Of a stretch of DNA of 64,000 nucleotides, positions 13,840 through 63,101 are shown piece by piece (position 1 is the stretch's first letter; each line of letters starts with the position of its first letter). The notes under the pieces are model-generated. The model searched no databases. It saw nothing but the letters and a program-made list of their open reading frames with translations, and was not told where the DNA came from. Both the position numbers and the translations under genes were made by a program. The DNA comes from Dehalococcoidia bacterium. Lineage in GTDB: Bacteria; Chloroflexota; Dehalococcoidia; Lucifugimonadales; JAGWBF01. The stretch spans positions 19,276-83,275 of the forward strand of contig JAGWBJ010000005.1 of the NCBI GenBank assembly GCA_021295955.1. Reading direction: 5' to 3'.

Positions 13840-13901
13840 CGGGGCCGGAGAACACTGGGCCCGAAGGTCCAAGGCACGGAAAGCAAAAAGGAGGGACAAT
13901 C

Positions 13902-22027: not shown

Positions 22028-22057
22028 TTGACACTCCACGGCGCCCGCAACTATACT
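22028..22057 (+). promoter_or_regulatory. candidate sigma-70-type promoter upstream of DUF1800 copy 1
   Basis: TTGACA (22028-22033), an 18-nt spacer, TATACT (22052-22057), about 98 nt before the ATG at 22156. Confidence 0.45.
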
Positions 22058-22155
22058 CCCTACAGCACCCACACGTGTGCCATAGTGTTACGCAGACCGC
22101 ATCCATGCGTCGATAGGGGGCATGGGCAGCGGGGGTCGATAGCGGGAGGTAGGAG

Positions 22156-23592: not shown

Positions 23593-23671
23593 GGGCTGAC
23601 CGCCACGCCGGGGGGGACCTGTTGCAACCCGGCGCCACCGGGCGCCGTGGGGGTACGAGGAGGTGCGCAAG

Positions 23672-24685: not shown

Positions 24686-24753
24686 CCGCCGGCCTCCGCC
24701 AGGACCCACGCACCGCACCGCACCGCGGGGTCAGCCAGTCCAGGAGTGTGACC

Positions 24754-27236: not shown

Positions 27237-27285
27237 GACCACGCCCCGAAGCCCACAGAAAACCCGCCTAGCAAGGAGGCTCCCC

Positions 27286-28122
27286 ATGCCCACGATGGTC
27301 GGAATGGGCGACTACGTCTACGAGTACCATGGAGACTGGGCCCGCCTTCCTGACGGACAGAGCTTCCAGACTCCCAGCGCGGTGGCCGTGGACTCCAGGG
27401 ACCGGGTGTACGTGTTCCAGAGGCAGGGGCCTCCCATCCTCGTCTTCGACCGGGACGGGTACCTGCGGGAGTCGTGGCCCCGGCGGCCGGGAGAGCTGGA
27501 GGACGCCCACTTCGTCTACGTCAGCCCCGACGACCACTTGTTCCTTACCGACCGGGACTCCCACCAGGTGCTCAAGTACACCACCGACGGGAAGCTGGTG
27601 ATGGCCCTGGGCAAGAGGTACCAAGCGGCCCTCCAGGCCCCCTTCAACCACCCGGCCGACGTGGGCGTGGCCCCCAACGGCGACCTGTACATCGCCGACG
27701 GGTACGGCAACTCCTCCGTCCACCGGTTTTCCAGCGACGGGGTCTACATCTCCTCCTTCGGCAGCCCCGGCACCGGGCCGGGGCAGTTCATGGTCCCCCA
27801 CGGCGTACGCGTGTCGAATGACGGCCGAGTGTTCGTCACCGACCGCGAGAACAACCGGGTGCAGGTCTTCGACTCCCGCGGCGAGTTCCTGACCCAGTGG
27901 ACTGGCCTCTACCGGCCCGCGGGCATACACATAGACGCCGCCCAGAACGTCTACGTCACCGACCACATCCCAAGGTTCAGCGTCCTGAACCTGGAGGGCG
28001 AGCTGCTGGCCCGCGGGCGCACCTTCGAGATCGGGCACAACATCTACAGCGACTCCAGGGGCGATCTCTACGCCGTGGACGTCCAGCTCTCCCGGGTCCA
28101 GAAGTTCGTGAAGGTGTCCTGA
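27286..28122 (+). CDS. PAL-like NHL-repeat beta-propeller protein, tandem paralogue 1 of 3 (278 aa)
   Basis: Contains IADGYGNSSVHRF and VTDRENNRVQVF. No signal peptide. Same length as the next two genes. Confidence 0.88.
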   Translation: MPTMVGMGDYVYEYHGDWARLPDGQSFQTPSAVAVDSRDRVYVFQRQGPPILVFDRDGYLRESWPRRPGELEDAHFVYVSPDDHLFLTDRDSHQVLKYTTDGKLVMALGKRYQAALQAPFNHPADVGVAPNGDLYIADGYGNSSVHRFSSDGVYISSFGSPGTGPGQFMVPHGVRVSNDGRVFVTDRENNRVQVFDSRGEFLTQWTGLYRPAGIHIDAAQNVYVTDHIPRFSVLNLEGELLARGRTFEIGHNIYSDSRGDLYAVDVQLSRVQKFVKVS

Positions 28123-28133
28123 AGGAGGCGCCA

Positions 28134-28970
28134 ATGGCCGTAGTCACCGGCACCGGCAACTACATGTACGAGCACCACCCCAACTGGGCCAGGCTTCCCC
28201 GGGGCCAGGACTGGCAGGGCCCCAGCTCCATCGCCGTCGACTCCAAGGACAGGGTGTACGTCTTCCAGCGTGGCGGACCTCCCATCCTGATATTCGAGCG
28301 CGAGGGGGACTTCGTCGGAGGCTGGCCCCGCAGGCCGAATCAGCTCGAGGACGCCCATCACATTTACATCAGCCCCGACGACTTCGTCTACCTGGCCGAC
28401 CGGGACGCCCACCAGGTGCTCAAGTTCACCACCGACGGGGAGCTGGTCATGGCCCTGGGGACCAGGCACCGTGCCTCACTCCAGGCGCCCTTCAACCACC
28501 CGTCGGATACCTGCGTGGCGCCCAACGGGGAGATATACATATCGGATGGGTACGGCAACTCCAGCGTCCACCGCTTCACTCCCGACGGCGAGCACATCGC
28601 CTCCTTCGGAAGTCCAGGAAGGGGGCCAGGGCAGTTCTGCGTGCCCCACAGCATCCGCGTCTCCGGCGACGGCCGCGTCTACGTGGCCGACCGGGAGAAC
28701 GACCGGGTCCAGGTGTTCACCCCCGAGGGGGAGTTCATCTCCCAGTGGACGGACCTGAAGTCCCCCATGGGGGTGCAGATCACGCCGGACAACGCGGTCA
28801 TAGTCACCGACCAGGTGCCTCGGTTCACGGTATTCTCCCTGGACGGCGACCTGCTGGCCCGGGGCCGGACCTTCGAGAATTGTCATAACGTCTTCACCAA
28901 CTCCAGGGGAGACTTCTACGGCGTGGACGCCCAACGGCGCCAGATCCAGCGGTTCGTCAAGATAACGTAA
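28134..28970 (+). CDS. PAL-like NHL-repeat beta-propeller protein, tandem paralogue 2 of 3 (278 aa)
   Basis: The ATG at 28134 lies 5 nt after AAGGAGG. Contains ISDGYGNSSVHRF and VADRENDRVQVF. The upstream part of the track ORF (27897-28133) is an out-of-frame overlap with paralogue 1. Confidence 0.88.
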   Translation: MAVVTGTGNYMYEHHPNWARLPRGQDWQGPSSIAVDSKDRVYVFQRGGPPILIFEREGDFVGGWPRRPNQLEDAHHIYISPDDFVYLADRDAHQVLKFTTDGELVMALGTRHRASLQAPFNHPSDTCVAPNGEIYISDGYGNSSVHRFTPDGEHIASFGSPGRGPGQFCVPHSIRVSGDGRVYVADRENDRVQVFTPEGEFISQWTDLKSPMGVQITPDNAVIVTDQVPRFTVFSLDGDLLARGRTFENCHNVFTNSRGDFYGVDAQRRQIQRFVKIT

Positions 28971-29002: not shown

Positions 29003-29839
29003 ATGCCCATCGTCACCGGCACCGGCAACTACATGTACGAGCACCATCCCAACTGGGCCAAGCTCCCGCGCGGGCAGGACTGGCAGGGCCCCAGCTCCAT
29101 CGCCGTCGACTCCAAGGACCGGGTGTACGTCTTCCAGCGGGGCGGCCCCCCCATCCTTATATTCGAGAAGGACGGCGAGTTCGTGGGCGGCTGGCGGCGG
29201 AAGCCGGGCCAGCTGGACGACGCTCACCACATCTACATCAGCCCCGACGACTTCGTCTACCTGGCCGACCGAGACGCCCACCAGGTGCTCAAGTTCACCA
29301 CCGACGGGGAGCTGGTCATGGCCCTGGGGACCAGGCACCGGGCGTCGTTGCAAGCGCCATTCAACCACCCTTCGGACGCCTGCGTTGGGCCCAACGGCGA
29401 CATCTTCGTTTCCGACGGCTACGCCAACTCCAGCGTGCACCGCTTCAGCCCCGACGGCAAGCACATCGCCTCCTTCGGAAGCCCGGGCAGCGGCCCCGGA
29501 GAGTTCCGTGTGCCCCACAGCGTGCGGGTCTCCAGCGACGGCCGCGTCTACGTGGCCGACCGGGAGAACAGCCGGGTCCAGGTGTTCACCTCCGAGGGGG
29601 AGTTCCTCAGCGAGTGGACGGACATGAAGTCGCCCATGGGAGTGCAGATCACCCCGGACAACGCCGTAATCGTCACGGACCAGGTGCCGCGGTTCAGCGT
29701 CTTCTCTCTGGACGGCGAACTGCTGGCCCGCGGCCGCACCTTCGAGCAGTGCCACAACGTCTTCACCAACTCCGTTGGCGACTTCTACGGCGTGGACACC
29801 TCGCGGCGGCAGATCCAGCGGTACGTGAAGATCACCTGA
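29003..29839 (+). CDS. PAL-like NHL-repeat beta-propeller protein, tandem paralogue 3 of 3 (278 aa)
   Basis: The ATG at 29003 lies 7 nt after AGGAG. Contains VSDGYANSSVHRF and VADRENSRVQVF. Very similar to paralogue 2. Confidence 0.88.
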   Translation: MPIVTGTGNYMYEHHPNWAKLPRGQDWQGPSSIAVDSKDRVYVFQRGGPPILIFEKDGEFVGGWRRKPGQLDDAHHIYISPDDFVYLADRDAHQVLKFTTDGELVMALGTRHRASLQAPFNHPSDACVGPNGDIFVSDGYANSSVHRFSPDGKHIASFGSPGSGPGEFRVPHSVRVSSDGRVYVADRENSRVQVFTSEGEFLSEWTDMKSPMGVQITPDNAVIVTDQVPRFSVFSLDGELLARGRTFEQCHNVFTNSVGDFYGVDTSRRQIQRYVKIT

Positions 29840-32727: not shown

Positions 32728-33612
32728 TCAAACGGCGGGGGGAGTCGAGCCGGCCGGGACATCCCCGGGGGGGCGGGCCGTGCGGCGCCTTCGGGACGCC
32801 CCGAACTGGCGTCTCAGGCCCGAGTAAACCAGGGCGGCGACGAAGAGGGCCGCCGACAGGAGGACCACGCTGGCGCCCGAGGAGACGTCGATCCACCAGC
32901 TCACGTATATGCCCGTCAACCCGCAGAATGCCCCCACGCCCGTGGACAGGACCACCATCCGGCGGAAGCTGTTGGTCAGGAGCCGCGCCACGATGGGGGG
33001 GATCACGATGGCCGCCGCGATGAGGGTGGCCCCCAGCACCTGCAGCGAGACTACGATGGTGGCTGCCAGCACGAGGGAGAACATGGCGTCTATCCAGCCG
33101 GTGGGCACGCCGTAGAACCGGGCCACCTCCTGGTCGAAGGTGGCGAAGAGCAGCAGCTTGAAGCCCAGGAAGACGATCACCACCGCGGCCGCGCTGACGG
33201 CCGCGATGGCCGCCAGGTCCCCCGGGGAGACCCCCAGGATGTTGCCGAAGAGGGCCGCCTCGAAGTCCCTGGTGAAGGTCTTGTACCGGCTGATAACGGC
33301 CACGCCGATGGCGAAGCTCGAGGTGGTTATGATGCCTATGGCCGCGTCGGCTCCGATCTGCCTCTTCCGGGTCGTGAGGGTGATGAGCAGGGCCGTCAGG
33401 AACCCCCAGATGCTGGCCCCCACGAAGAACCCCATGAAGGGTATCACGTAGCTGACCACGGCCCCCCCGAAGACCGCGTGGGCCATGCCGTGGCCGATGT
33501 ACGACATGCGCCGGAGGACTATGTAGACCCCCATCAGGCCGCACAGTCCGCCGGCCAGGGTCGTGGCCGCTATTCCCAGGACGAAGAAGTCGTACCGGAA
33601 GGGATCAAACAC
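32728..33612 (-). CDS. metal ABC transporter permease (ABC-3, ZnuB/MntB/TroC-like)
   Basis: 294 aa, highly hydrophobic, containing MSYIGHGMAHAVFGG. 8-nt overlap with the upstream ATPase gene. Confidence 0.88.
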   Translation of the reverse strand: MFDPFRYDFFVLGIAATTLAGGLCGLMGVYIVLRRMSYIGHGMAHAVFGGAVVSYVIPFMGFFVGASIWGFLTALLITLTTRKRQIGADAAIGIITTSSFAIGVAVISRYKTFTRDFEAALFGNILGVSPGDLAAIAAVSAAAVVIVFLGFKLLLFATFDQEVARFYGVPTGWIDAMFSLVLAATIVVSLQVLGATLIAAAIVIPPIVARLLTNSFRRMVVLSTGVGAFCGLTGIYVSWWIDVSSGASVVLLSAALFVAALVYSGLRRQFGASRRRRTARPPGDVPAGSTPPAV

Positions 33613-34483
33613 CGTCGGGTCCCTCCCCTATTCCCTCCTCCTGCTGTAGAGGCTGGCCCTCTCCGTTGGAGCCCCCGTTGGACCCAAAATGATGGGGGCT
33701 CTCGGCCACCAGGGTCATGCCCTGGTACCGGATCACGGGCATCTCGGCGCCGTACGTCAGGCGGAAGGTCTCCTCGGTGAACACCTGGGAGGGCGGCCCC
33801 TGGTCCACCAGTCGTCCGTTGAGGCACACCACCCACGGCAGGTGGGCGGCCACGGAGTTGATCTCGTGGGTCGTCATCACTATGGTCACGCCCTGGTGGT
33901 TCAGGTCGTGGAGGAGGTGCATCATGTCGTCCCGGGTCTTGATGTCCACCCCAGAGGTGGGCTCGTCCAGGAGCAGCAGCGACGGGCTGCTGACCAGGGC
34001 CCTGGCGAGGAACGCCCTCTGCTGCTGCCCGCCGGACAGCTCCTGGATGTGGCGCCCGGTCAGGTGGGAGATGCCCAGGCGCTCCAGCATCTCCAGGGCC
34101 AGCTTGCGCTCCCGGCGCCCGTACCACGGGAACAGCAGGTTCTCCATGGTGCGCCCCATCATGACGACCTCTTCCACCGTGACGGGGAAGTTCCAGTCGA
34201 TGGTCTCAAGCTGGGGCACGTAGCCGGCCCTGGGCCTGCGCCGGTCGGTGGGCGTCCCATCGACCAGGACCCTGCCCTCGTAGACATCCACCGCCCCCAG
34301 TATGGACCGCAGCAGGGTGGTCTTTCCCGACCCGCTGGGCCCCAGCAGCCCTACGAACTCGCCCGGGGCCACCGACAGGCTGACGTCGGACAGGACGGGC
34401 TGGCCGTCGTAGCCGCAGGTGAGGCCCTGGACCTCGATGATGGGCTCGGCGGCGGGGTGCTGGTGTGGAAACGGGTGAAGCAT
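33605..34483 (-). CDS. metal ABC transporter ATP-binding protein (ZnuC/MntA/TroB-like)
   Basis: Walker A GPSGSGKTTLL, signature LSGGQQQRAFLARAL, Walker B LLLLDEPTSGVD. Confidence 0.9.
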   Translation of the reverse strand: MLHPFPHQHPAAEPIIEVQGLTCGYDGQPVLSDVSLSVAPGEFVGLLGPSGSGKTTLLRSILGAVDVYEGRVLVDGTPTDRRRPRAGYVPQLETIDWNFPVTVEEVVMMGRTMENLLFPWYGRRERKLALEMLERLGISHLTGRHIQELSGGQQQRAFLARALVSSPSLLLLDEPTSGVDIKTRDDMMHLLHDLNHQGVTIVMTTHEINSVAAHLPWVVCLNGRLVDQGPPSQVFTEETFRLTYGAEMPVIRYQGMTLVAESPHHFGSNGGSNGEGQPLQQEEGIGEGPDGV

Positions 34484-34505
34484 CTGTATCCCCCTGTGAC
34501 TCGGG

Positions 34506-35525
34506 CTACTGGGGGTACCTTGCCTTGCTGGCGCCCTCGAACACGGGCCCGGGGTCGAACCCGGCCAGGGCGTCGGCGCTTCCTCCCAGGGCCCCGATCA
34601 TTACCTCCATGTTCTGCAGCATGAGGCCCAGGTACGAGTGCCTGGGACCGCCAGGCTCTCCCGGCAGGTCGTCGTCGGCAAGGCCGTCCACGAAGGCCGC
34701 GCCGCCCTCTTTGGCGATCCGCTCCATCACATCACTGGGGAACACCTCGGAGCCGAACACCGCCGGCACCCCCAGCTCTCCCACCTGGTCGATGAGCCGT
34801 CCCACCTCCCTGGCCGAGGGCTCGGAGAAGTCCGAGGGTTGGACGGCGCCGACCACCTCCATGCCGTAGCGGCCGGCGAAATAGGCCCACGAGTCGTGGT
34901 AGGTGAGGAGACGGCGGTTGGCGGCGGGGACCGTCTCCACGGCGGCGGCGATGCGTCCGTCCAGATCCTCTATGCGTGCCTCGAAGGCGTCGTAGTTTTC
35001 GCTGTAGTAGGCCTCGTTCCGCGGGTCCAGCCGCACCAGCTCGTCCCGGACCAGCTCGGCGTACCGGAGGCCGAGAAGCGGGTCCGGCCACAGGTGGGGG
35101 TTGGGATGCCCGCCGGACTCGGGAAAGGAGAAGTCGAACCGCCACTCCTCACGGGTGACCGTCCGCTCCCCCAGGGACAGAATGACGGCGTCGCTTCGCT
35201 TGCCTGCCTTTGCCAGCTCCAGGGTGGGCTCCTCCAGGAAGAGGCCGTTGAGGACTATGAGGTCCGCTTCGGCCAGGAGCCGGGACACCGAGGGGGCGGG
35301 CTCGAAGGTGTGGGAGTTGACCCCCTCGGGCACGACACCCTCCAGGTCTATCCGGGCCCCGCCGATGTTCTCGACGATGCTGGTGATGGGTGACACGGTG
35401 GTTATCACCTTCAGGGGGGCGGCGTCCGCCCCATCGCCTGGGGGCGGCGCCGTCGACTCGGCCCCGCAGCCCAGCAACGCCAGGAGCAGGAAGGGGACGA
35501 CGAATAGGGCCGGCCGGCGGATCAC
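34506..35525 (-). CDS. metal ABC transporter substrate-binding lipoprotein (ZnuA/TroA family)
   Basis: The GTG at 35525 gives (M)IRRPALFVVPFLLLALLGCGAES, a lipoprotein signal with a lipobox Cys. The track start (TTG at 35624) lies upstream of a good promoter -10 and is therefore unlikely. Confidence 0.85.
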   Translation of the reverse strand: MIRRPALFVVPFLLLALLGCGAESTAPPPGDGADAAPLKVITTVSPITSIVENIGGARIDLEGVVPEGVNSHTFEPAPSVSRLLAEADLIVLNGLFLEEPTLELAKAGKRSDAVILSLGERTVTREEWRFDFSFPESGGHPNPHLWPDPLLGLRYAELVRDELVRLDPRNEAYYSENYDAFEARIEDLDGRIAAAVETVPAANRRLLTYHDSWAYFAGRYGMEVVGAVQPSDFSEPSAREVGRLIDQVGELGVPAVFGSEVFPSDVMERIAKEGGAAFVDGLADDDLPGEPGGPRHSYLGLMLQNMEVMIGALGGSADALAGFDPGPVFEGASKARYPQ

Positions 35526-35603
35526 GATACGGTACGGCTTGGCGCTAGTCCGCAAATATAGCCTAATGCGATTATTGGCATGTGCAACGCCTTTCGCCTG
35601 CCG

Positions 35604-35631
35604 AGTATAGCACATAGCCTGCAATTGTCAA
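35604..35631 (-). promoter_or_regulatory. candidate promoter of the metal ABC operon
   Basis: On the minus strand: TTGACA (35626-35631), a 16-nt spacer ending in TGC, TATACT (35604-35609). The AT-rich palindrome TAATGCGATTA (35564-35574) lies in the predicted leader. Confidence 0.4.
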
Positions 35632-36682: not shown

Positions 36683-36796
36683 CCTTACCCTCCCATCCAG
36701 GCCTCAGCCCCCGGCCATTGGCCCAGCCGGCCTTGCCGGGACCCGGCCAAGAGTATATCCTCCGCCGGCCCGGGTGTCTAACCCCCGCCGTCGCGG

Positions 36797-36825
36797 TTGA
36801 CGCCGGCTTACGGGATGGCTATATT
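36797..36825 (+). promoter_or_regulatory. candidate sigma-70-type promoter
   Basis: TTGACG (36797-36802), a 17-nt spacer, TATATT (36820-36825), 43 nt before the TTG start at 36868. Confidence 0.4.
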
Positions 36826-38366: not shown

Positions 38367-39185
38367 TCATCCCCGGGGCTGCCAGCTCACCACCATGGGG
38401 GTGAGCTCAGGCGTGCCCCGTATCCGGAAGATGCCGTCCTCTTCCACCAGCAAGCCCGGCAGGCTCTCCTCCAGCAGTTTCTGCTTCTCGCCTCCGGGAG
38501 CCAGGTACAGACGCGCTGTAAGCTGCCCCACGGCGTCCTCTACGGAGTCGAAGCCCCTGGAGGGGTGGGGCGGGAGGGGGTCGAACCGGGCGTCCACGCC
38601 CATCTCCTGCAGGACCTCTCTGAGCTCCGGGACGGCGGGAAGCTGCAGCCGCTCTTCTCCGTGGACAAGCTCCCACAGGGGCGAGTTCTGGAACTGGGGC
38701 GATCGGTCGTACAGGACGACCTGCACCTTGCGGCGGGCATGGTCGTTCAGCTTCCTCACGAATACGTCGACGTCGTGGACCACGTACAGTACGTGACAGC
38801 ACAGGACCACGTCGGCCGGCTCCACCTCCGCGTCCTCCCACCGGGCCTCGACCAGGGACACGTTGCCGATGCCGTGGGTCCGGGCCTCGTCCAGGAGGAC
38901 CGAGCCCATGCTCTGGGAGGGTTCCACCGCTACTACCTGGCCGCAACTGAGGGCCAGGGCCAGGGCCAGCCTGCCCCCTCCGGCGCCCACGTCCATCACC
39001 CGGTCTTCGGGCCTGACATCCTCCAACAGCCGGTCCAAGAGCTCATCGTCGGTCCTGAGCGGGTCGGCCCGAAAGTTCTCGGCGTAGGGCTTCCAGTGAT
39101 CGGAGGGAGGGGCCTCCCACCGGGCCCTGTCCGATTGGGCGTGCTCGGCCTCGACCATCCGCTGCCAGCGTTCCGCAGCGTTCAC
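38367..39185 (-). CDS. class I SAM-dependent methyltransferase
   Basis: Motif [16 protein letters not shown]. The GTG at 39185 overlaps the upstream stop (GTGA). The track ORF extension to 39440 overlaps the MsrB domain region in another frame. Confidence 0.82.
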
Positions 39186-40399
39186 AGGGACCCCTCGCGC
39201 ACGAACCTCATGGAGATGGAGTTGACGCAATGACGGGTGTTGGTCCCGGTAAGCCCCTCTCCCACGAACACGTGACCCAGGTGCCCGCCACAGGCGGCGC
39301 ACTCGATCTCCGTCCGGAATCCGTCCGGATCGGGCAAACGGTTCACCGCTCCGGGCACCTCCCTGTCGAAGGCGGGCCAGCCGCAACGGGCGTCGAACTT
39401 GTCGGCCGACCTGTACAACTCGGCGTCGCACCTGCGACACACGTAGGTGCCCGGCTCGTAGAAGTCGTCGTACTCCCCCGTGAAGGGAGGTTCCGTGCCC
39501 TTGCGCTCGATTACGTACCGCTCCCGGTCGGACAGGGGGTTGTAGCTTGGCTTCCGCGTCTCCATCAGCCAGCCACGGACCGCCGCCAGGAAGCCTCCCG
39601 GGTTATCCTCGAACACCATGTGGGCCGCCTGCGGGACCTCGGCCAGCCGGCCGTCGGGCAGTACGTCCAGCATGCGCCGGGCAACCTCGGGAGCCAGCAG
39701 GTCCGTTTCCACGCCGCGGACTATCAGGGTGGGACACTCGACCGACGCCAGCAGGGGCCACATGTCGGGAGGCTGGGCTCCCGTGCCGTGCCGCACCTGC
39801 TCTCGGATGGCCAGGTCGTACAGCCAGCCGATCTTTCCGCCGTCCATCTTCCGCGTCGAGTGGGCGAGCCTGCGGCGCAGAAGGGGCTCCGGTGTAAGGG
39901 GGTTCTCGGCGCTCATGTACTCGACCACGTCCTCGAAGGAGTCGAACTCCTCGGGCACGGCCACCATCTCGGCGCGTATCCGGTCGATGCCCCGCTGGTC
40001 GGACTCGGCGCCGACGTCCACCATGACCAGCTTCTCCACTCTGTCGGGGAACCGCGCGGCGAAGTTGACCGCATTCTGGCCTCCCATGGAGTGCCCCACC
40101 AGCACGAAGGGCTCCAAAGCGAGTGCCTCGCTGAGGGCCTCCAGGTCGGCCACGTAGGCCTGGGTGCTGTAGTCGCCGTCCGAGGCCCAATCGCTGCCGC
40201 CTCGGCCCCGCTGGTCCACCGCCAGGACGTGGTAGTCGCCGCACATGGCCGAAGAGAAGTCGTCCCACGAGTGGCGATGGCCCCGCAGTCCGTGGAGCAG
40301 CACCATGGGGGTCTTCCCTTCAGTGCCCCAGTCCAGGTAGCTGAGCCTGATGCCATTGGCGGTGACGGTCCTCTCCCGGGCCTGCTTCAGGGTGGTCAT
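39182..40399 (-). CDS. msrB: alpha/beta hydrolase fused in frame to peptide-methionine (R)-S-oxide reductase MsrB
   Basis: From the ATG at 40399: [25 protein letters not shown]...VGHSMGG...FLAAVRGWL, followed directly by [11 protein letters not shown]...CRRC...[12 protein letters not shown]...RHCVNS (MsrB zinc CxxC pairs and catalytic Cys). No stop codon between the two domains. Confidence 0.8.
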
Positions 40400-40473
40400 G
40401 CCTAGCCTCCCGACATTCGATGGGGTGGTCCGAGGCCAGTATAACACGGGGGGGCCGGAGCCCCTCACCCCAA

Positions 40474-40496
40474 CCCCTCTCCCCCGGGGAGAGGGG
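40474..40496. repeat. 23-bp near-perfect palindrome CCCCTCTCCCC-C-GGGGAGAGGGG in a divergent intergenic region
   Basis: Arms at 40474-40484 and 40486-40496 are exact reverse complements. Preceded by CCCCTCACCCCAA. Confidence 0.9.
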
Positions 40497-40679
40497 CTAT
40501 GGACGGCGTTGACTGGCTGTCTCGGGCGCACTAGACTGGGAACAATCCCAGACGCCTGACTACGGCTGTCGCCGTCGCGCGGGAGCACGATTCCATGCAG
40601 CAAACAATCTCCCCTGCGGGAAGCCATGCACCACGGGGCCGTCGCCCGCGATGCCGCCCGCAGTCCCACTCCAAGACCG

Positions 40680-41204
40680 ATGAAGGGTAGGTGGGCTGTA
40701 GTCCTGCTGCTGGTGGCGGCCGCCTGCGGGGGTGGGGAGAGCGGGGAGCCGCTGCCGACGGCCGCGCCGCAGGAGGGCGTGCAGGTCACGGCAGTGGTGG
40801 AGGGCGACAGCTTCGACGTCCTCTTCCACGACGGCTCCACCGACCGGGTCAGGCTGCTCGGCATCGACGTCCCCGACACGTCCCCGGAGAGCAGCCTGGA
40901 CGAGTACGGGGACATTGCCGACCGGGACTGCCTGAAAGACTGGGGAGAGCTGGCAACGGAGTTTGCCACGGCCAGTATGGCCGGCAGGGATGTCACCCTG
41001 ATCGAGGACCCCGCAGCCGGGGGGCGGGACGACTCCGGGGCACTGCTGGCCTACGTGGAGGTCGACGGGCGCGATTTCGGCACAATACTGGTGGAGCAGG
41101 GTCTGGCCCGGGCCTACGTCGAGGGGACCGGCGGCCTCAAGAGGGACTACCTGGCCTCCGAGGCCCTGGTCCGCACCAGCGGAGTGGGCCTGTGGTCGTG
41201 TTAG
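40680..41204 (+). CDS. thermonuclease (staphylococcal nuclease, SNase-like) lipoprotein
   Basis: The ATG at 40680 gives [18 protein letters not shown] (lipobox). Contains DGDSFDV...[10 protein letters not shown] and [25 protein letters not shown]. Confidence 0.82.
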
Positions 41205-41260
41205 CTCGCTGGGGGTCACTCCCGGAGCTCCAGACGCGCGACGGCTTCGCCAGACGTCGC

Positions 41261-41698
41261 CTAGCCCAAATGGACGATCTCGACGTCGCCCCAGTGGCGC
41301 TGGAGATACTCGGCGACCAACCGGCGGTGACACCGGTCGGGTCTGTCCTCACTGCACAGCAGGCATCCGTTGGAGACCGTCCTCTTTATCGGCATCTTCC
41401 CAACTCGCCGCTGGTCCATGAGGGCGAGGAACCGGCGTTCGTAGGTGGCCCAGTCGCACTGGCCATTTCGATAGGCCCGCAGCAGCTCCTTGGTGGGGGC
41501 CAGCTCGGGCAAATGGACGTATCTCATCCGGCATATCTTATCTACCAGGTATTCGAGGTCGCCTTTCTTGGTGAATCCGGCCAGCTGGGAGAGGTTACTC
41601 ACCCGCACGTCCACCAGGCGCTTGGCCCCCGACCCGCGAATCAGCTCGAAGAAGTCGGAGGCGGACTTCTTCGTGAACCCGATGGTATACACTTTCAC
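41261..41698 (-). CDS. DUF488 domain-containing protein
   Basis: From the GTG at 41698: VKVYTIGFTKKSASDFFELI...LLCSEDRPDRCHRRLVAEYL, typical of DUF488. Confidence 0.8.
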   Translation of the reverse strand: MKVYTIGFTKKSASDFFELIRGSGAKRLVDVRVSNLSQLAGFTKKGDLEYLVDKICRMRYVHLPELAPTKELLRAYRNGQCDWATYERRFLALMDQRRVGKMPIKRTVSNGCLLCSEDRPDRCHRRLVAEYLQRHWGDVEIVHLG

Positions 41699-41811
41699 GG
41701 GGCGTTCTCCAACCGTCAACCACGGGGGATTGGTCCTGATGCGGACCTCCGAGGCTGATGGTAACACACGGGAGAAGGACACTCTCGCCGCCTGCGGGCA
41801 GCCCGGAACGC

Positions 41812-41841
41812 TTGACGAAACATCGATAGCTCGACTACAAT
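41812..41841 (+). promoter_or_regulatory. candidate sigma-70-type promoter upstream of DUF1800 copy 2
   Basis: TTGACG (41812-41817), an 18-nt spacer containing TCGATAG, TACAAT (41836-41841). A further TATAAT lies at 41867-41872. Confidence 0.45.
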
Positions 41842-41916
41842 CGGCCCCGATTCAGTAGATGCACTTTATAATGTGCTAGCATTTGCCGCGATTCGGCGGG
41901 AAGGCGGGTCTGTAAC

Positions 41917-43350
41917 ATGTCCCAGCAGGAAATAGAGCTCATGGCCCATCTGATGCGCCGTGCCGGCTTCGGGGCCACCAGGGACGAGTTGGAGAGCTAC
42001 GTTGCCCAGGGGTACGAAGCGGTGGTGGAGCAGCTCCTGGATCCCCAGCACGCCCCCGCCGAGCTGGACGACGAGGACCTCATCAGGCGCTACCACACCG
42101 ACGCCAACGACATGCCGGTGAAGGACAGCGGCCAGTCCTACTGGCTGTACCGCATGATCAACACCCGGCGGCCCCTGGAGGAGAAGCTGGCCCTCTTCTG
42201 GCACGGGCTGCTTCCGTCCGGATACACCAAGGTCTCCCGGACGATGGTCCTCCTGCGGCAGATCGAGATGTTCCGCCGCTTCGGGATGGGCAGTTTTCAC
42301 ACCCTGCTGATGGAGCTGTCCCAAGACCCGGCCATGCTGTTCTGGCTGGACAACAAGGACAACCACAAGGACGAGCCCAACGAGAACTACGGCCGGGAGC
42401 TGCTGGAGCTGTTCTCCATGGGAGTGGGCAACTACACCGAGCAGGACGTGTACGAGGCGTCCCGGGCGTTCACCGGATGGACCATATACAACGCCGACCT
42501 GCACACCGTCCGGACCAACATGATGACGAACCACCCCTATGGGAAGCTGGACTGGCAGTTCCAGTACCTGAACGAGGACCACGATGACGGCGAGAAGGCC
42601 TTCCTCGGCCAGCGGGGCGCCCTCAACGGAGAGGATGTCATTGACATAATATGCCGGCAACCCGCCACCGCCCGGTTCCTCTCCCGCCACCTGTACAACT
42701 TCTTCGTCGCCGACGAGCCCCAGGTGCCCGCCTGGCAAACCGTGCCCCCCAGGGACCCGGAGGCGATCCAGACCTTGGTCGACGCGTATTTCGAGAACGA
42801 CTACCACATCCGCCCCATCCTGCGGGTCCTGTTCAACTCCGACTTCTTCAAGAAGGCCGCCTTCGCCAAGGTCAAGAGCCCCACGGAGGTGGTCGTCGGC
42901 ACCGTCCGCCTCGTCGGCGGGCACCGGTTCCCGGCGTTGGAGGATATGAAGCTGGCGGGCCAGATAGGCCTGATGGGCCAGGAAATCCTCGACCCTCCCA
43001 GCGTCGAAGGGTGGCATACGGGGACCGAGTGGATCAACAGCGGTGCGCTGGTACAGCGGGTCAATTTCGCCGTGGAGCAGCTCGCAGACCCGGACAAGCC
43101 GGGGGTGAGGTCCATCATCGACCGGATCGCGTCCATGGGCGCGGTATCTCCCGAACGGTTGGTGGACACGTGCCTCGACCTGGTGGGCCCCATGCGGGTC
43201 TCCGACGACACCCGTCAACAGCTGGTGGGCCAGGCTGAGGCCGGCGGCGAGATAAGGTTCGACTCCGAGCCCGTGAGCCGCCGGGCGGCGGAGTCCGTCA
43301 AGAGGCTCCTCCAGCTCATCGTATCGACCCGGGAATACCAGCTTTGCTGA
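41917..43350 (+). CDS. DUF1800 domain-containing protein (copy 2)
   Basis: 477 aa, colinear with 22156-23592 (LMRRAGFG, LFWHGLLPSGY, LFWLDN, NENYGRELLELFSMGVGNYTEQDV). Confidence 0.88.
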   Translation: MSQQEIELMAHLMRRAGFGATRDELESYVAQGYEAVVEQLLDPQHAPAELDDEDLIRRYHTDANDMPVKDSGQSYWLYRMINTRRPLEEKLALFWHGLLPSGYTKVSRTMVLLRQIEMFRRFGMGSFHTLLMELSQDPAMLFWLDNKDNHKDEPNENYGRELLELFSMGVGNYTEQDVYEASRAFTGWTIYNADLHTVRTNMMTNHPYGKLDWQFQYLNEDHDDGEKAFLGQRGALNGEDVIDIICRQPATARFLSRHLYNFFVADEPQVPAWQTVPPRDPEAIQTLVDAYFENDYHIRPILRVLFNSDFFKKAAFAKVKSPTEVVVGTVRLVGGHRFPALEDMKLAGQIGLMGQEILDPPSVEGWHTGTEWINSGALVQRVNFAVEQLADPDKPGVRSIIDRIASMGAVSPERLVDTCLDLVGPMRVSDDTRQQLVGQAEAGGEIRFDSEPVSRRAAESVKRLLQLIVSTREYQLC

Positions 43351-44366
43351 CCTACAGGTACAGCCACACCATAGGCCTCTTCTCCAACATGGGAGGGCTG
43401 GGGTTCTGCCATCCCGTGGACCTGGCCCTGGGACGCGACGGAGTGATATACGTGGTGAGCCGGGGCAACTTCGACACCGAGGTCCAGTGGCCGGGCAAGC
43501 GGGTCACCATGTGCACGCTGGACGAGGAGTACCTGGGGGAGATGAGCGGCGGCGGCACCGGAGACGGGCAGATAATGTGGCCCGCGGGCGTCGCCCTGGA
43601 CGGAGATGGGAACGTCTACGTCTCCGACGAGGCCCTGAACCGGGTATCGGTGTTCGCACCCGACGGGGACCTCCTCTGTAGCTGGGGGAACGAGGGTTCC
43701 GGCAAAGGAGACTTCAACCGGCCTGCCGGCATCGCCTTCGACGGGGAGGATAACCTGCTGGTGGCCGACGGCCTCAACTGCCGTATCCAGAGATACACCA
43801 AGGACGGACGCTACCTGGGCGGTTGGGGCAGGCCGGGGCGCGCCGACGGGGAGCTCAACGTGCCTTGGGGCGTCCATGTGGACCGGGCCGGCAATGTCTA
43901 CGTCGCCGATTGGCGCAACGACCGCGTCCAGAAGTTCGACGCCGATGGACGCCATCTGGATACCTGGGGAGGACCCGGCCAGGGCGACGGCGAGTTCTCC
44001 CGGCCCGCAGGGGTCACCGTCGACGAGGACGGCGACATATACGTCGCCGACTGGGGGAACGAGCGAGTCCAGGTGCTGGGCCCGGAGGGAGAGTTCCGGG
44101 CCGTCCTCTACGGCGAGTCCGGGCTCTCCAAGTGGGCCAAGGAGTGGTTCGCCGCCAACCAGGACGAGTACAGGGCGAGGCTGACCGCGGATATGGAGCC
44201 ACCCCCGGACCGGCTGTCTCCAGGCTCCGTCAGGCACCGGTCGGCCAGCACGGAAAAGCTGTTCTGGGGACCCACCTCGGTCAGGGTGGACGGCCAGGGT
44301 AGGGTCTACGTAGTGGACAGCATGCGACATCGAATCCAGATATACCAGAAGGGCGCTGCCACGTGA
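43344..44366 (+). CDS. NHL-repeat beta-propeller protein (partner of DUF1800 copy 2)
   Basis: The TTG start at 43344 overlaps the DUF1800 stop by 7 nt. 340 aa, colinear with 23672-24685. Confidence 0.85.
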   Translation: MLTYRYSHTIGLFSNMGGLGFCHPVDLALGRDGVIYVVSRGNFDTEVQWPGKRVTMCTLDEEYLGEMSGGGTGDGQIMWPAGVALDGDGNVYVSDEALNRVSVFAPDGDLLCSWGNEGSGKGDFNRPAGIAFDGEDNLLVADGLNCRIQRYTKDGRYLGGWGRPGRADGELNVPWGVHVDRAGNVYVADWRNDRVQKFDADGRHLDTWGGPGQGDGEFSRPAGVTVDEDGDIYVADWGNERVQVLGPEGEFRAVLYGESGLSKWAKEWFAANQDEYRARLTADMEPPPDRLSPGSVRHRSASTEKLFWGPTSVRVDGQGRVYVVDSMRHRIQIYQKGAAT

Positions 44367-44506
44367 CGTCCACGCCTGGCGGCGAATGTGGGTGATTCCG
44401 CAGCCCCCCCGCCGGTCGTCTGCGATCTCACGACCCATGATATCGGTGAGCAGTGGTGGAGGACTCGACCCCAAGATAGCCGGAAGCTCCGGAAAGGAAC
44501 GTGTCG

Positions 44507-46549
44507 ATGCGTAGCGTCGGCGTAGATATCGGGGGCACCTTCACCGACATAGTCCTCTTCAACCAGGAAACGGGCGACATCCAGGTGGCCAAGGTCCCGT
44601 CTACGCCGCGGAACCAGGCCGTGGGCTTTGCCGAAGGGGTCGAGGCGGTGGGCACGCGGTTCTCCCAGGTCCAGAGGGTCGTACACGGGACCACCGTAGC
44701 CACCAATGCGGCCATCGAACGCAGGGGAGCCAAGACGGCGTTGGTAACCACGGCCGGCTATGGGGACCTGCTGGAGATAGGCCGCGGGCAACGGCTCACC
44801 GGAGGCCTCTTCGACCCCAAGTTCGTCCGTACCCCTCCCCTGGTGCCGCGCCCTCTGCGGTTCGAGGTCGAGGAGCGCATGGACGCCACCGGAGACGTGT
44901 ACGCCCCCCTGGACGAGGACGGCGTCCGCCAGATCGGACGCCGCCTGGCAGAGCTGGAGGTCGACGCCGTCGCCATCTGCTCCCTGCACTCCTACGCCAA
45001 CGGCTCACACGAACGGCGTATCGGGGAGCTGCTGGCGGAGCACCTCCCCGGGGCCTTCCTGTGCCTGTCCTCGGAGGTCTTGGCGGAGTACCGGGAATAC
45101 GAGCGGTTCTCAACCACCGTGTTCAACGCCTATCTGGGCCCGTTGATGCGCCGCTATCTCAACGGCATGCAGGAGTGGCTCCACGACCGCGGCTACGGAG
45201 GCGACCTGCAGATAATGACCTCCAACGCGGGGATGGTGTCGGCGGAGGTGGCCGCGGAGTTCCCCGTACTCACCATCCTCTCGGGGCCGGCCGCAGGCGT
45301 GAGCGGGGCGGTGGCCGTGGCGGAGGCGGCGGGACTCGAGAACGTAATCACCTATGACATGGGAGGCACCAGCACGGACGTCTGCCTGCTGAAGGACCTC
45401 AGGCCCACGGCGTCTCCGGCCAGGGTGGTCGGAGGGCTGCCCCTGAAGACATCCCAGTTGGATATCAACAGCATAGGCGCCGGAGGCGGCAGCATCGGAT
45501 GGCTGGATACCGACGGGAGCTTCCGCGTGGGGCCCCGGAGCGCTGGGGCGGAGCCGGGGCCGGCCTGTTACGGGAGGGGCGGCCGGGAAGCGACTGTAGC
45601 CGACGCGAACCTGGTGCTCCAGCGCCTGGGCCGTTCTACTCTCCTGGGCAACCGCATGAGGATGCACCCGGACCTGGCCCTGGCGGCGATGGAGAGCCTG
45701 GCGGCGCAGCTTGGCGTCCCCGACGTTCACCACGCCGCCGACGGCGTCATAAAGGTGGCCGTGGCCAACATGGTCAGCGCCATCCGCACGATCTCCATAG
45801 AGATCGGCGAGGACCCCCGGGACTTCGCACTCATTCCCTTCGGAGGGGCGGGGCCGTTGCACGCCTGCCTGGTGGCCGAGGAAACAGGCATCTCGACGGT
45901 CGTGGTGCCCCCGCACCCGGGCAACCTTTCCGCGTTGGGCCTCCTCACCTCCGACCTGAAACACGAGTTGGTGCGCACCTATCTGACCATCCTGCACGAG
46001 GGCGACGTGGACCGGGTCCACGCCCTGCTGGACAGCATGGAGCAGGAGGGGCGCGACATGCTCTCCCGGGAAGGCATGCCCGAGGACCGGATGGCGTTCC
46101 TGTACTCCGCAGACATGCGGTACGTTGGCCAGGGGCACGAGCTCAACGTCTGGCTGACCAGGGAGGAGTTCGACGTCCAGGTCATGGCGCAGAGGTTCCA
46201 CGACGCCCACCTGGACAGGTTCACCTACTCCCGCAACGAGCTGCCCATCCAGCTCGTGAACCTGCGCGCGACGGCCACCGGCAGGGTGAGCAAACTGCGT
46301 GTGCATCCGCTGGACTCCAGCGACACCCCCGATCCCCGCACGGCATTGAAGGAGACCCGAGACGTCCACCTCTGCGGGCAATGGATGAGCACCCGCGTCT
46401 ACCAACGGGAGGGCCTCCTGGCGGGGATGGAGCTGGGGGCGCCGGCCATCGTGGAGGAGATGGGCTCCACCACCCTGATACCGCCCGGCTGGACGGGGCG
46501 CTTGGACTCTAACGGCAACATCCTGCTGGTGGCCGGAGGTGAGGCGTGA
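44507..46549 (+). CDS. hyuA: hydantoinase/oxoprolinase family protein, A subunit
   Basis: Starts MRSVGVDIGGTFTDIV. The ATG at 44507 lies 8 nt after AAGGA (the track start is the GTG at 44501). Colinear with the N-terminal half of 4284-8087. Confidence 0.9.
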   Translation: MRSVGVDIGGTFTDIVLFNQETGDIQVAKVPSTPRNQAVGFAEGVEAVGTRFSQVQRVVHGTTVATNAAIERRGAKTALVTTAGYGDLLEIGRGQRLTGGLFDPKFVRTPPLVPRPLRFEVEERMDATGDVYAPLDEDGVRQIGRRLAELEVDAVAICSLHSYANGSHERRIGELLAEHLPGAFLCLSSEVLAEYREYERFSTTVFNAYLGPLMRRYLNGMQEWLHDRGYGGDLQIMTSNAGMVSAEVAAEFPVLTILSGPAAGVSGAVAVAEAAGLENVITYDMGGTSTDVCLLKDLRPTASPARVVGGLPLKTSQLDINSIGAGGGSIGWLDTDGSFRVGPRSAGAEPGPACYGRGGREATVADANLVLQRLGRSTLLGNRMRMHPDLALAAMESLAAQLGVPDVHHAADGVIKVAVANMVSAIRTISIEIGEDPRDFALIPFGGAGPLHACLVAEETGISTVVVPPHPGNLSALGLLTSDLKHELVRTYLTILHEGDVDRVHALLDSMEQEGRDMLSREGMPEDRMAFLYSADMRYVGQGHELNVWLTREEFDVQVMAQRFHDAHLDRFTYSRNELPIQLVNLRATATGRVSKLRVHPLDSSDTPDPRTALKETRDVHLCGQWMSTRVYQREGLLAGMELGAPAIVEEMGSTTLIPPGWTGRLDSNGNILLVAGGEA

Positions 46550-48570
46550 AAGGGGTCGATCCCATCACCGTCGAGGTGGTCCGCAACGCCTTCATCACCC
46601 TCATCCAGGAGATGCGTGCAAGCATCGGACGCGCCGCCTTTTCTCCCATAATCTACGAGTCCCACGACTTCTCCTGCGCCCTGCTGAACGCCCGGGGGGA
46701 GATAACGGCCATCTCCGACGACCTGCCGGCCCACATCCTGCCCACGGCCCTGGGCGTGACGGCCGCCCAGGAGAAGTTCGGAGACGACATCCACCCCGGG
46801 GATGTCATAATGATGAACGACCCCTACGTCCTGGGGTCCCACATGAACGACACAGCGACCCTGCATCCCTACTTCCTGGGAGACCGCCTCATGGCCTGGG
46901 TCGCAGTGCGCGTGCACTACCTGGACGTCGGCGGCATGACCCCCGGCAGCATCGCCATCCAGGCCACGGAGGTTCACCAGGAGGGCACGCGCATACCCCC
47001 CATCAAGCTGTACGACCGCGGGGAGCCCAACCGGGCGGCCATGGACCTGCTTCTGGCCAACGTGCGCCAGCATCGCGAGTTCGAGGGCGACCTGATGGCG
47101 GTGGTCGGAGCGGCCAACCTCGCCCACACGCGCCTGGCAGAGACCTACGACAAGTATAGCCCCGAGGTGGTGGAAAGGTGCTCCGAGCTCATCCTGGACC
47201 GGGGGGAGAGGCGGATGCGGGAGGCGATTTCTCGCGCCAAGCCCGGCGAGTACAGCCACGAGCCCTACATGGAGTCGCCCCAGGACCGCGAGCCGTTGCT
47301 CATCCGAGTGCGCCTCTCCGGCCGCGGGGACAACATCGTGGTGGACTTCTCCGAGTCCGCTCCCCAAACCTCCGGGGCCATCAATGGCGGGCTCGCCTCG
47401 GCGCGCAGCGGCGCTTTCGTGGCCATCAAGGCGGCCCTGGACCCCCACTCTCCGGTCAACGCGGGAGCGTTCAGGCCCATCACCGTCATCACGAGGCCCG
47501 GCTCGATGCTCCAGGCCGAGTACCCCGCCGCCTGCTGCGGCGCCATGAACGTGATCAACGCGACCACCGAGGCGGTGATGAAGAACCTGGCGTCTCCCTA
47601 CGCCGACGGTGTGATCGCCGGAGCGGTCCCCATCTACGCCATGCTCGTGCTGGCCGGATGGGATGACCAGCGGGGCAGGTCGTTCATCCACTTCGAGAGC
47701 AATATCGGGGGCACGGGAGCGGTCAAGGAGCACGATGGAAACAACGTAGTGGCGGGGTACGAGCGCAGCGATTTCCCGAGAATCTTCCCCGCCGAGGTCG
47801 CCGAGACCCAGTACCCCCTGAGACTGGAGACGACCGAGCTGGTCCCCGACAGCGGGGGCCCCGGCCAGCGGCGGGGCGGCCTGGGACTGCGCCGCGTCAT
47901 TCGCATAATGTGCGAGAGGGCGGTGCTCACGACCAACCTGGAGCCGTCGGTGTACCCCTCCACCGGCCTGTTCGGAGGAGCGGGCGCGGGGACGGTGTAC
48001 CAGGTTAACGTGACGCGAAACGGCCGGCGCCTGGACCTGCGGTCGGTGAACGGCAAGACCGTCGGTTTCCCCTTGGAACGGGGCGACCTGGTGGAGCAGA
48101 TCACCACCACGGGCGCGGGGTACGGCGACCCGCTGACCCGAGAAGTGGACCTGGTGCTCCACGACCTTTCCAACGGCTACATCACCGAGGACCACGCCCG
48201 GTCGGCCTACGGAGTGGTGATCCGGGACGGGTCCGTGGACCTGGAGGCCACCGACTTGCTAAGGGCCGATCTGGCCGGCCGCCGCAGGTATCTGAGGGGA
48301 AGGGACGACGAGGAAGGGGACTTCGCCTTCGGCCGGCGAGTGGCCAGGATGAAGAAAGAGCTTGCCGACGACCTGGACCTGCGGCAGGGAGACGTGGTGG
48401 AGCTGGTCACAACCAACGCGGCTGCTCTCCGGGCGTGGGTGGACATCGACGATGGGGCTCCCGCCGACTCGGTCCCCATGGGTCCCGCGGAGGGGCGGGA
48501 CCCAAGTGAGGCCCCCGAAGAGATGGTATGGGTGAGACCCCTGGCAGCAAGGGAATTCCCGGCGGAGTGA
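46546..48570 (+). CDS. hyuB: hydantoinase B/oxoprolinase family protein, B subunit, with a C-terminal extension
   Basis: The GTG start overlaps the hyuA stop (GTGA). DPITVEVVRNAFITLIQEM is the typical HyuB N-terminus. About 90 extra C-terminal residues. Confidence 0.9.
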   Translation: MKGVDPITVEVVRNAFITLIQEMRASIGRAAFSPIIYESHDFSCALLNARGEITAISDDLPAHILPTALGVTAAQEKFGDDIHPGDVIMMNDPYVLGSHMNDTATLHPYFLGDRLMAWVAVRVHYLDVGGMTPGSIAIQATEVHQEGTRIPPIKLYDRGEPNRAAMDLLLANVRQHREFEGDLMAVVGAANLAHTRLAETYDKYSPEVVERCSELILDRGERRMREAISRAKPGEYSHEPYMESPQDREPLLIRVRLSGRGDNIVVDFSESAPQTSGAINGGLASARSGAFVAIKAALDPHSPVNAGAFRPITVITRPGSMLQAEYPAACCGAMNVINATTEAVMKNLASPYADGVIAGAVPIYAMLVLAGWDDQRGRSFIHFESNIGGTGAVKEHDGNNVVAGYERSDFPRIFPAEVAETQYPLRLETTELVPDSGGPGQRRGGLGLRRVIRIMCERAVLTTNLEPSVYPSTGLFGGAGAGTVYQVNVTRNGRRLDLRSVNGKTVGFPLERGDLVEQITTTGAGYGDPLTREVDLVLHDLSNGYITEDHARSAYGVVIRDGSVDLEATDLLRADLAGRRRYLRGRDDEEGDFAFGRRVARMKKELADDLDLRQGDVVELVTTNAAALRAWVDIDDGAPADSVPMGPAEGRDPSEAPEEMVWVRPLAAREFPAE

Positions 48571-61182: not shown

Positions 61183-61211
61183 TTGACACCAGGTGGGCCC
61201 GAATCTACAAT
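61183..61211 (+). promoter_or_regulatory. near-consensus sigma-70-type promoter
   Basis: TTGACA (61183-61188), a 17-nt spacer, TACAAT (61206-61211), about 195 nt upstream of the ATG at 61407. Confidence 0.5.
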
Positions 61212-63072: not shown

Positions 63073-63101
63073 TTTACGGATTTCGTCTGCTGGTTTATAA
63101 T
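63073..63101 (+). promoter_or_regulatory. candidate sigma-70-type promoter
   Basis: TTTACG (63073-63078), a 17-nt spacer, TATAAT (63096-63101), about 100 nt before the ATG at 63201. Two GC hairpins (63029-63043, 63044-63065) precede it, after the amidase stop. Confidence 0.45.

Follow-up and report, generated by a model that had tools for sequence, protein, structure and literature searches.

Two long-diverged copies of a DUF1800-NHL propeller gene pair head different hydrolase operons in a Dehalococcoidia genome

DUF1800 and DUF1501 are large, long-standing protein families of unknown function. DUF1501 resembles alkaline-phosphatase/sulfatase enzymes; its canonical members bear twin-arginine translocation (TAT) signals, an export signal (Sec or TAT) being a defining feature of the DUF1800/DUF1501 system, and it is also the partner of the planctomycete PSCyt/PSD proteins (DUF1549/DUF1553/DUF1585). 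In Proteobacteria and in bacteria of the Planctomycetes-Verrucomicrobia-Chlamydiae (PVC) group, DUF1800 and DUF1501 genes form a known operon pair, likewise of unknown function; its chitin-synthase-linked examples are reported to be inherited and transferred as a unit (PMC5122149). Here we describe a module of different composition, in which a DUF1800 gene is followed by a gene for an NHL-repeat beta-propeller. Two copies of it lie within 64,000 nt of contig JAGWBJ010000005.1 (positions 19,276 to 83,275) of a Dehalococcoidia bacterium, a stretch that we call the window.

The resemblance to the described pair is clear: the window proteins match PF08811 over its full length, related modules adjoin DUF1501 genes, and the module, too, is passed on as a unit. 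The differences are equally clear. What is new compared with the known pair is the dedicated NHL propeller as constant partner, the lack of signal or TAT peptides on components of the window type (judged by eye), and the absence of DUF1501 from the window's clade; moreover, the window subfamily is unusually conserved and multi-copy per genome. We consider the two loci to be probably old paralogs of a self-contained cytoplasmic two-protein complex that have been placed in different catabolic operons.

Copy 2 consists of a DUF1800 gene at 41917-43350 (+), encoding 477 aa (PF08811, E=3e-106), and a gene at 43344-44366 (+) that starts with TTG and encodes a six-bladed NHL beta-propeller of 340 aa (NHL repeats, E=3.5e-39). 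Copy 1 comprises the DUF1800 gene at 22156-23592 (+; 478 aa, PF08811, E=1.6e-104) and a 340-aa NHL partner listed at 23663-24685 (+). The original prediction had these open reading frames (ORFs) at the correct positions, and its estimate by eye of colinear pairs sharing about two-thirds of their residues was close: the DUF1800 proteins align end to end with a single gap and 322/478 identical residues (67%), the NHL proteins with a single gap and 199/336 (59%). Both DUF1800 proteins cover profile positions 1-419 of 419 in PF08811 (356.5 and 350.9 bits; cut-off 26.1), and both partners match the NHL repeat (PF01436; 131 and 138 bits, E ~1e-39 to 1e-41, with 4-5 repeats called). Among solved propellers, the NHL domain of TRIM71 matches the NHL partner at E=4e-64. 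Between the copies, DNA identity amounts to 72.5% (DUF1800) and 67% (NHL), falling to 61% and 53% at third codon positions; given a genome with ~90% GC at these positions, this divergence is close to saturation.

The predicted 7-nt overlap of the two genes in copy 2 exists. The DUF1800 stop codon (TGA) occupies 43348-43350, and from an in-frame stop at 43236 to the family-conserved NHL N-terminus no ATG, GTG or TTG occurs other than the TTG at 43344. It is found in this lineage only, however: an ortholog of copy 2 with 85% identity (locus L001) has a 70-nt spacer between the two genes and an ATG start yielding MGTQPIYRYSH. By this comparison, overlap and TTG start would be particular to the window's lineage and not a feature of the module. 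For the NHL gene of copy 1, a likelier start is GTG at 23672, which lies behind a GAGGAGG Shine-Dalgarno sequence and gives the N-terminus MLSFRYSHT, corresponding to MLTYRYSHT of copy 2. Inspection of N-termini by eye found no signal or TAT peptide on DUF1800, NHL or DUF1501 proteins, those of Proteobacteria included; in Chloroflexota and Alphaproteobacteria alike, the N-termini are hydrophilic and the conserved domain begins at once. As judged from these N-termini, the DUF1800/NHL module is most likely cytoplasmic.

The association of the two genes extends far beyond the window. Placing DUF1800, NHL and DUF1501 on related loci by tblastn gave 103 DUF1800 genes of the family, 84 of which stand in a same-strand cluster with an NHL gene of this type. 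Pairwise distances between DUF1800 proteins correlate with those between their NHL partners (r=0.74 over the 84 modules; maximum of 2000 label permutations, 0.12), and the correlation rises to r=0.90 (n=44) when only paralogs from the same genome are compared, which removes the species tree as its cause. For DUF1800 and NHL alike, each window copy has the same loci as its closest neighbours, and the neighbour-joining trees of the two proteins give matching clades. RNA evidence was available as assembled contigs from two sponge metatranscriptomes, matching at 97-99% identity; one contig crosses the DUF1800/NHL junction of copy 2 (43182-43426) and another that of copy 1 (23231-23768). The DUF1800 and NHL genes are inherited, duplicated and transcribed together, and the claim that the pair is kept and duplicated as a unit stands. 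Could two abundant paralog families have come together twice by chance? The window does hold six NHL genes in all, and these genomes are rich in paralogs. Yet the module NHL is a class of its own, dedicated to DUF1800 and sharing only ~30% identity with the four remaining NHL proteins of the window; it is found with 84 of 103 DUF1800 genes, spread over several phyla, and co-diverges with them. Incidental adjacency is extremely improbable and effectively refuted.

Nor did the two copies arise by duplication in recent times. Homologs in other metagenome-assembled genomes (MAGs) are nearer to copy 1 (71%) than copy 2 is (68%), and in a sister genome orthologs of both stand on a single 256-kb contig (P0003, 86% identical to copy 2, and P0032, 88% identical to copy 1). 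Copy 2 also has an 85% ortholog in loci L001-L003. An ancient duplication of the whole pair, or two separate acquisitions of it, gave rise to the two copies, neither of which has been lost.

The original prediction spoke of a two-protein system. NHL is indeed the constant partner, but the prediction overlooked DUF1501, which is the third gene in 39 of the 84 modules, in the orders DUF1800>DUF1501>NHL, DUF1800>NHL>DUF1501 or DUF1501>DUF1800>NHL; the other 45 are plain DUF1800>NHL pairs. The window pairs might therefore be incomplete versions of a three-component machine of DUF1800, DUF1501 and NHL, with a catalytic DUF1501 supplied in trans. Apart from the frequency and varied order of DUF1501, this idea draws on the interleaving of two- and three-gene modules over much of the trees outside the window's clade, on DUF1800 proteins that show no fixed sequence differences between module types, on genomes that have both types (one contig carries L019 as well as L046), and on the established DUF1800/DUF1501 operon pair (PMC5122149). 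On the other hand, tblastn with two DUF1501 queries (E<=1e-5) found no DUF1501 in the 64-kb window, nor is there one within 7-10 kb of any of the ~20 modules in the clade to which both window copies belong, all of them two-gene in the DUF1800 and NHL trees. There are also tandem DUF1800-NHL arrays that lack DUF1501. A fixed 1:1:1 complex is hard to square with such a clade and such arrays, and we regard provision in trans as unlikely. The window's clade has most likely shed DUF1501, and a self-contained two-gene module is the reading that we retain.

Tandem arrays were seen in both forms in Dehalococcoidia, with three DUF1800-NHL pairs at L019 (9058-16915) and three DUF1800-DUF1501-NHL units at L051. 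Copies outside the window are plentiful: a scan of one genome per species returned at least 598 matching genomic stretches, the best 80 of which come nearly all from MAGs of Dehalococcoidia, SAR202 or other Chloroflexota, a few being alphaproteobacterial. At least eight DUF1800 genes lie on one 2.27-Mb contig (L026, L037, L058, L061). Searches with DUF1800 queries from three sub-clades gave more than 8000 homologs per query, the best 120 for the window type all measuring 470-494 aa with at least 65% identity, and the subfamily is conserved at 65-90% identity across hundreds of clusters. The two further sub-clades, both very populous and well conserved, are a 468-aa soil type (>80% identity over 120 clusters) and a 484-aa type that includes Entotheonella factor. 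Beyond these, the window type grades into DUF1800 proteins of 37-46% identity, many with N-terminal extensions of ~20-130 residues; altogether, 13,698 DUF1800 relatives were found among 1.84 billion cluster representatives searched. Such units are found in other phyla as well: an Entotheonellia unit consists of a luciferase-like gene, a P450 gene, DUF1800 and NHL, and a soil Rokubacteria unit of DUF1800, DUF1501 and NHL. Given the size of the family, a second copy in the window is ordinary; the family itself is the point of interest. Paralog expansions are familiar from SAR202, where flavin/luciferase-like monooxygenases, family III CoA-transferases and others have multiplied. The DUF1800/NHL expansion resembles these in occurring in the same lineage with many diverged copies per genome, and differs from them in that the expanded entity is a two-gene unit and not a single enzyme.

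Each window copy lies behind its own candidate promoter and heads a different hydrolase operon. The sigma-70-like promoter candidates named in the original prediction proved credible: TTGACG-N18-TACAAT at 41812-41841 (+) ahead of copy 2 matches at 10/12 positions, and TTGACA-N18-TATACT at 22028-22057 (+) ahead of copy 1 at 11/12. Eight sites in the window match at 10/12 or better, where Markov resampling predicts 0.58. They fall within gaps between called genes or at the margins of such gaps, which suggests that near-consensus promoters are in use in this 67%-GC Chloroflexota-like genome. The remaining sites are at 20495-20524 (-), 35604-35631 (-), 36752-36780 (-), 36797-36825 (+), 61183-61211 (+) and 63073-63101 (+). 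RNA contigs, which cannot map transcription starts, have depth 0 at 41534-41800, and their first piece begins at 41864, downstream of the copy-2 candidate. Both candidates look real and are not homologous to each other; the upstream non-coding regions of the two copies are dissimilar (local alignment score 10 versus a shuffle mean of 10.5).

The heptamer TCGATAG had been put forward as a motif shared by the two upstream regions, and this did not survive. The heptamer is present at the three sites named (41823-41829, 22110-22116 and 22136-22142), within the promoter spacer in copy 2 and in the 5' leader in copy 1. Its six occurrences in the window compare with 3.7 expected, and 21 of 100 shuffles reach six. 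The two regions have five heptamers in common against 3.3 in shuffles, and two 200-nt regions of such composition have at least one in common 90% of the time. Across the 200-nt upstream regions of the 103 family genes, TCGATAG is found on the coding strand at the two window copies only; at three other loci it lies on the opposite strand at unrelated positions. It thus occurs at background frequency and is absent from the same strand and position upstream of other modules. A riboswitch or structured leader was also considered and set aside, with leader fold z-scores of -1.05 and -1.25 and no match to an Rfam family in the leaders or anywhere else in the window.

Downstream of the pairs, Pfam agrees with the predicted amidase after copy 1 and split hyuA/hyuB after copy 2. 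The amidase (24748-26157, +) is a full-length member of the amidase signature family (PF01425, E=5.5e-111, 372 bits) that reaches no NCBIfam equivalog cut-off. Behind copy 2 lie a HyuA-type subunit of the hydantoinase/oxoprolinase/caprolactamase alpha family (44501-46549, +; Hydantoinase_A, Hydant_A_N and Hydant_A_C) and a HyuB-type subunit (46546-48570, +; Hydantoinase_B, E=5e-144), the start of which overlaps the HyuA stop by 4 nt. Their best NCBIfam matches are CapA (571 bits) and CapB (285 bits), with cut-offs of 1000; by these scores the two would be closest to caprolactamase subunits, at values far under the equivalog cut-offs. RNA contigs bridge NHL and HyuA (44429-44619) as well as NHL and amidase (24400-24960).

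The HyuA/HyuB arrangement behind copy 2 is syntenic in the relatives L001-L003. In these 85%-identical relatives, a TRZ/ATZ-type amidohydrolase gene (L001, 6407-7957) lies 43 nt upstream of the copy-2 DUF1800 gene. At the same position (40626-41782) the window has a SNase-like gene (+) and a DUF488 gene (-) instead, which marks the copy-2 promoter region as a lineage-specific rearrangement. Nearby, L001 has two genes separated by 284 nt, for a 123-aa MsrB/SelR protein and a 278-aa alpha/beta hydrolase, where the window shows a single 604-aa ORF at 39182-40996 (-); the latter is probably two same-frame genes without an intervening stop. The orthologous locus of copy 1 (L090) retains the aminotransferase gene, the module, a radical-SAM gene and three 278-aa NHL genes; the amidase is not present there.

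Does the module then serve amide or heterocycle catabolism, as originally proposed? Locally the link holds, with C-N hydrolase genes behind both copies on the same strand and joined to NHL on the same RNA contigs; across the family it does not. We took the 150 genes lying no more than two positions from 41 two-gene modules and set them against 111 genes at least 5 kb away at the same loci, the counts being approximate because the simple gene caller missed some genes (e.g., 28131-28970). The commonest families near modules were Bac_luciferase (7), CoA_transf_3 (5), amidase (5), MFS transporters (5) and Amidohydro_2 (4), the first two being families that are themselves expanded in SAR202; in the far set, we counted five luciferase-like genes, two amidases and three amidohydrolases. 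Amidases were not enriched near modules (5/150 versus 2/111, Fisher p=0.70), nor were all C-N hydrolases taken together (~12/150 versus 5/111, p=0.32), and a third near/far comparison was not significant either (p=1.0). Within the window's own clade, an amidase lies within two genes of 5 of ~22 modules (copy 1 of the window, L006, L008, L010 and L012), compared with the ~7% that control gene frequency predicts; this comparison is post hoc, and the adjacency is suggestive.

On the view originally proposed, DUF1800 and NHL would form a two-protein enzyme devoted to the catabolism of amides or N-heterocycles, which feeds or follows the amidase or the HyuAB lactamase/hydantoinase. The local operons, the synteny of copy 2 with HyuAB in relatives, where the amidohydrolase stands directly upstream, and the amidases of the clade would fit such an enzyme. 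The lack of family-wide enrichment and the missing amidase at L090 do not, and other modules adjoin genes for P450, luciferase-like monooxygenases, CoA-transferases, MFS transporters or ferredoxins. We judge a dedicated enzyme of this kind to be improbable. In our preferred account, paralogs of one module would instead have been recruited into different catabolic operons, here one with an amidase and one with an ATP-dependent lactamase/hydantoinase. Whether the two copies in this organism act on different nitrogen-containing substrates we can only offer as a tentative suggestion.

At the protein level, the two partners show different types of conservation. An alignment of 98 DUF1800 sequences from three sub-clades, ~50-52% identical to each other, has ~75 invariant positions. 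They include R14-R15, E89-K90, W95-H96, D145-N146, H150, N155-E156-N157, R160-E161, E164, D221-H222-D223, R257, D266-E267 and E364-W366. Invariant loops lie at residues 145-151, 190-213 and 360-372. The AlphaFold2 model built from the three-sub-clade alignment is mostly helical (pLDDT 84.7, pTM 0.87). Invariants among 84 NHL partners, by comparison, are the structural G/D/N/R/P/W positions of the repeat, and no His is conserved at >=95%. The NHL partners also have a family-specific insert of ~50 residues (at ~250-305) ahead of the last blade. Because invariant polar residues are dense in DUF1800, whereas those of NHL are structural only and include no His, DUF1800 would be the functional core of the module, probably catalytic or ligand-binding, and the propeller an obligate partner with a structural or substrate-presenting part. 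DUF1501 may be a dispensable or replaceable third component.

Six-bladed NHL-type enzymes such as peptidyl-alpha-hydroxyglycine alpha-amidating lyase (PAL; peptidylamidoglycolate lyase), SGL/SMP-30 lactonases, virginiamycin B lyase and ScyF have fold class and repeat in common with the NHL partner, which matches PAL in the PDB (3fvz, E=1e-15), SGL in Pfam (58 bits) and ScyF in NCBIfam (180 bits; cut-off 350). PAL-type enzymes need a zinc site on the propeller face that is formed by three conserved His residues. In the sequence alignment of the 84 partners, this three-His site is not conserved, and a PAL-like zinc lyase role was dropped. A further difference from these enzymes is that the best sequence matches of the module NHL are the non-enzymatic NHL domains of TRIM71 and Thin, and the insert before the last blade is its own. 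As for the PSCyt/PSD proteins, DUF1800 residues ~245-305 match PSD1/PSD2 at sub-threshold values (E 0.003-0.2), a hint of possible distant relatedness; those proteins are large and secreted, have a cytochrome-like domain and lack an NHL partner. A metal site like that of HD-domain proteins or phosphodiesterases (PDEs) came up from H...DHD...D-like invariants and a few very weak PDE/dGTPase rows in Foldseek. It was abandoned when Pfam, scanned at E<=10, yielded neither an HD nor a PDE match and nothing beyond weak PSD1/PSD2. Neither DUF1800 nor DUF1501 is matched by any NCBIfam model. Among PADLOC defence-system models there is likewise none for DUF1800 or DUF1501, and NHL gave a weak repeat-level match only (PD-T4-6, E=3.6e-6).

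Members of the family feature strongly in sponge metatranscriptomes. More than 1000 RNA contigs pile on the most conserved DUF1800/NHL stretches, with word depths in the thousands; this depth is not quantitative, as it sums many paralogs and species, and it shows that many family members are transcribed there. The window itself derives from a sponge metagenome: 91% of its sampled words are contained in one run. In a sponge DNA run, the conserved stretches 42068-43135, 43670-44203 and 22335-23135 stand at 50-100x the depth of flanking strain-specific sequence, and RNA runs have many chimeric "joints" between DUF1800/NHL paralogs. Depth excess and joints together point to dozens of family copies per community genome equivalent that assemblers have collapsed. 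Abundance is also seen in protein: of the 15 bacterial proteins that top the published vesicle fraction proteome of Entotheonella, two are DUF1800 proteins (PMC12981691).

Such abundance invites the alternative that the pair is no enzyme at all but an abundant binding, scaffold or storage complex, for instance associated with intracellular vesicles or membranes, or sequestering a ligand or metal. Apart from the vesicle proteome and the very high RNA contig depth on conserved stretches, it would be in keeping with the lack of a recognisable catalytic motif or fold and with an NHL partner that retains structural residues only, and it would explain why the gene context varies among such heterogeneous neighbours. 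Against it, ~75 invariants rich in His, Asp, Glu, Arg and Asn are more active-site-like than scaffold-like, at least eight diverged copies per genome resemble the substrate diversification of catabolic families, and the proteins lack transmembrane or signal segments. We hold a purely non-enzymatic function to be distinctly unlikely.

Our preferred account is then as follows. The two loci would be old paralogs of a self-contained cytoplasmic two-gene module, made up of an all-alpha DUF1800 protein (with its ~75 invariant residues, among them H96, H150, H222 and many Asp/Glu) and an NHL beta-propeller found only as its partner. Such modules are multi-copy in SAR202-type Dehalococcoidia, sponge symbionts included, and occur in Entotheonellia, Rokubacteria and Proteobacteria as well. 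As far as linkage and co-divergence can tell, DUF1800 and NHL probably form a heteromeric complex. Several points weigh against this account. The long homologs checked for a Rosetta-stone partner include no fusion of DUF1800 with NHL or with DUF1501; they bear EF-hand or dockerin domains or plain extensions instead. Nineteen of the 103 DUF1800 genes have no adjacent NHL gene, some of them at contig edges or beside transposases. Neither a catalytic motif nor a known fold was recognised in DUF1800; sequence and profile searches of the PDB with it gave no match, and two models of it (pLDDT 72 and 85) reached at best E=0.58 and a TM score of ~0.12 when run through Foldseek on PDB structures. Module neighbours are heterogeneous, with no hydrolase class enriched over the control genes at least 5 kb off, and the copy-1 ortholog locus is the one without the amidase. 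Lastly, the RNA contigs come from related strains and are not reads of the window's strain.

The window holds other genes of related kinds. Beside copy 1 are three tandem 278-aa NHL-propeller paralogs at 27286-28122, 28131-28970 and 29003-29839 (all +), of which the first and second are 64%, the first and third 62% and the second and third 87% identical; they are ~30% identical to the module NHL, are kept in L090, and are overlain by RNA contigs at 27261-27855 and 27971-28361. A further pairing of a DUF with a propeller is given by a DUF1028 gene (237 aa, 13126-13839, +) and a 322-aa NHL gene (13836-14804, +), which overlap by 4 nt and are adjacent in the sister genome, too (L090, 2220-3918); from this arrangement, they may represent another enzyme-plus-propeller unit. 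A second hydantoinase-family system is made up of a fused HyuA-HyuB protein of 1267 aa with oxoprolinase-like architecture (4284-8087, +), followed by an M20 peptidase (8109-9374, +). Further afield, a 390-aa protein with a long His-rich N-terminal repeat (HDEHEGHGH...; 18950-20122, +) looks by eye like a cation-diffusion-facilitator metal exporter, and a ZnuABC-type uptake system is encoded at 32728-35624 (-).

The papers searched gave no functional data on DUF1800 and no description of this module; among them, none that mentions DUF1800 treats SAR202 or an NHL partner, none links SAR202 with these NHL proteins, and none pairs SAR202 with "NHL repeat". It is as a speculation that we raise the broader possibility that DUF1800 and NHL, with or without DUF1501, constitute an unrecognised cytoplasmic enzyme complex with a fold that has no solved relative, one of the most expanded and highly expressed units of SAR202-type Chloroflexota and of other bacteria from sponges and soil. 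Its reaction might be an as yet unassigned one by which dissolved organic compounds, host-derived or recalcitrant, are degraded, with paralogs tuned to different substrates. The window's subfamily, being soluble, free of signal peptides and made up of two proteins, should lend itself most readily to expression, assays and structure determination, and a confident DUF1800 model without a PDB analog is a target for structural genomics. The role of SAR202 and sponge Chloroflexota in the degradation of refractory organic matter is much discussed; with an activity assigned to this family, thousands of genes would gain an annotation, and models of carbon and nitrogen turnover by symbionts and in the deep ocean could have one of their gaps closed.

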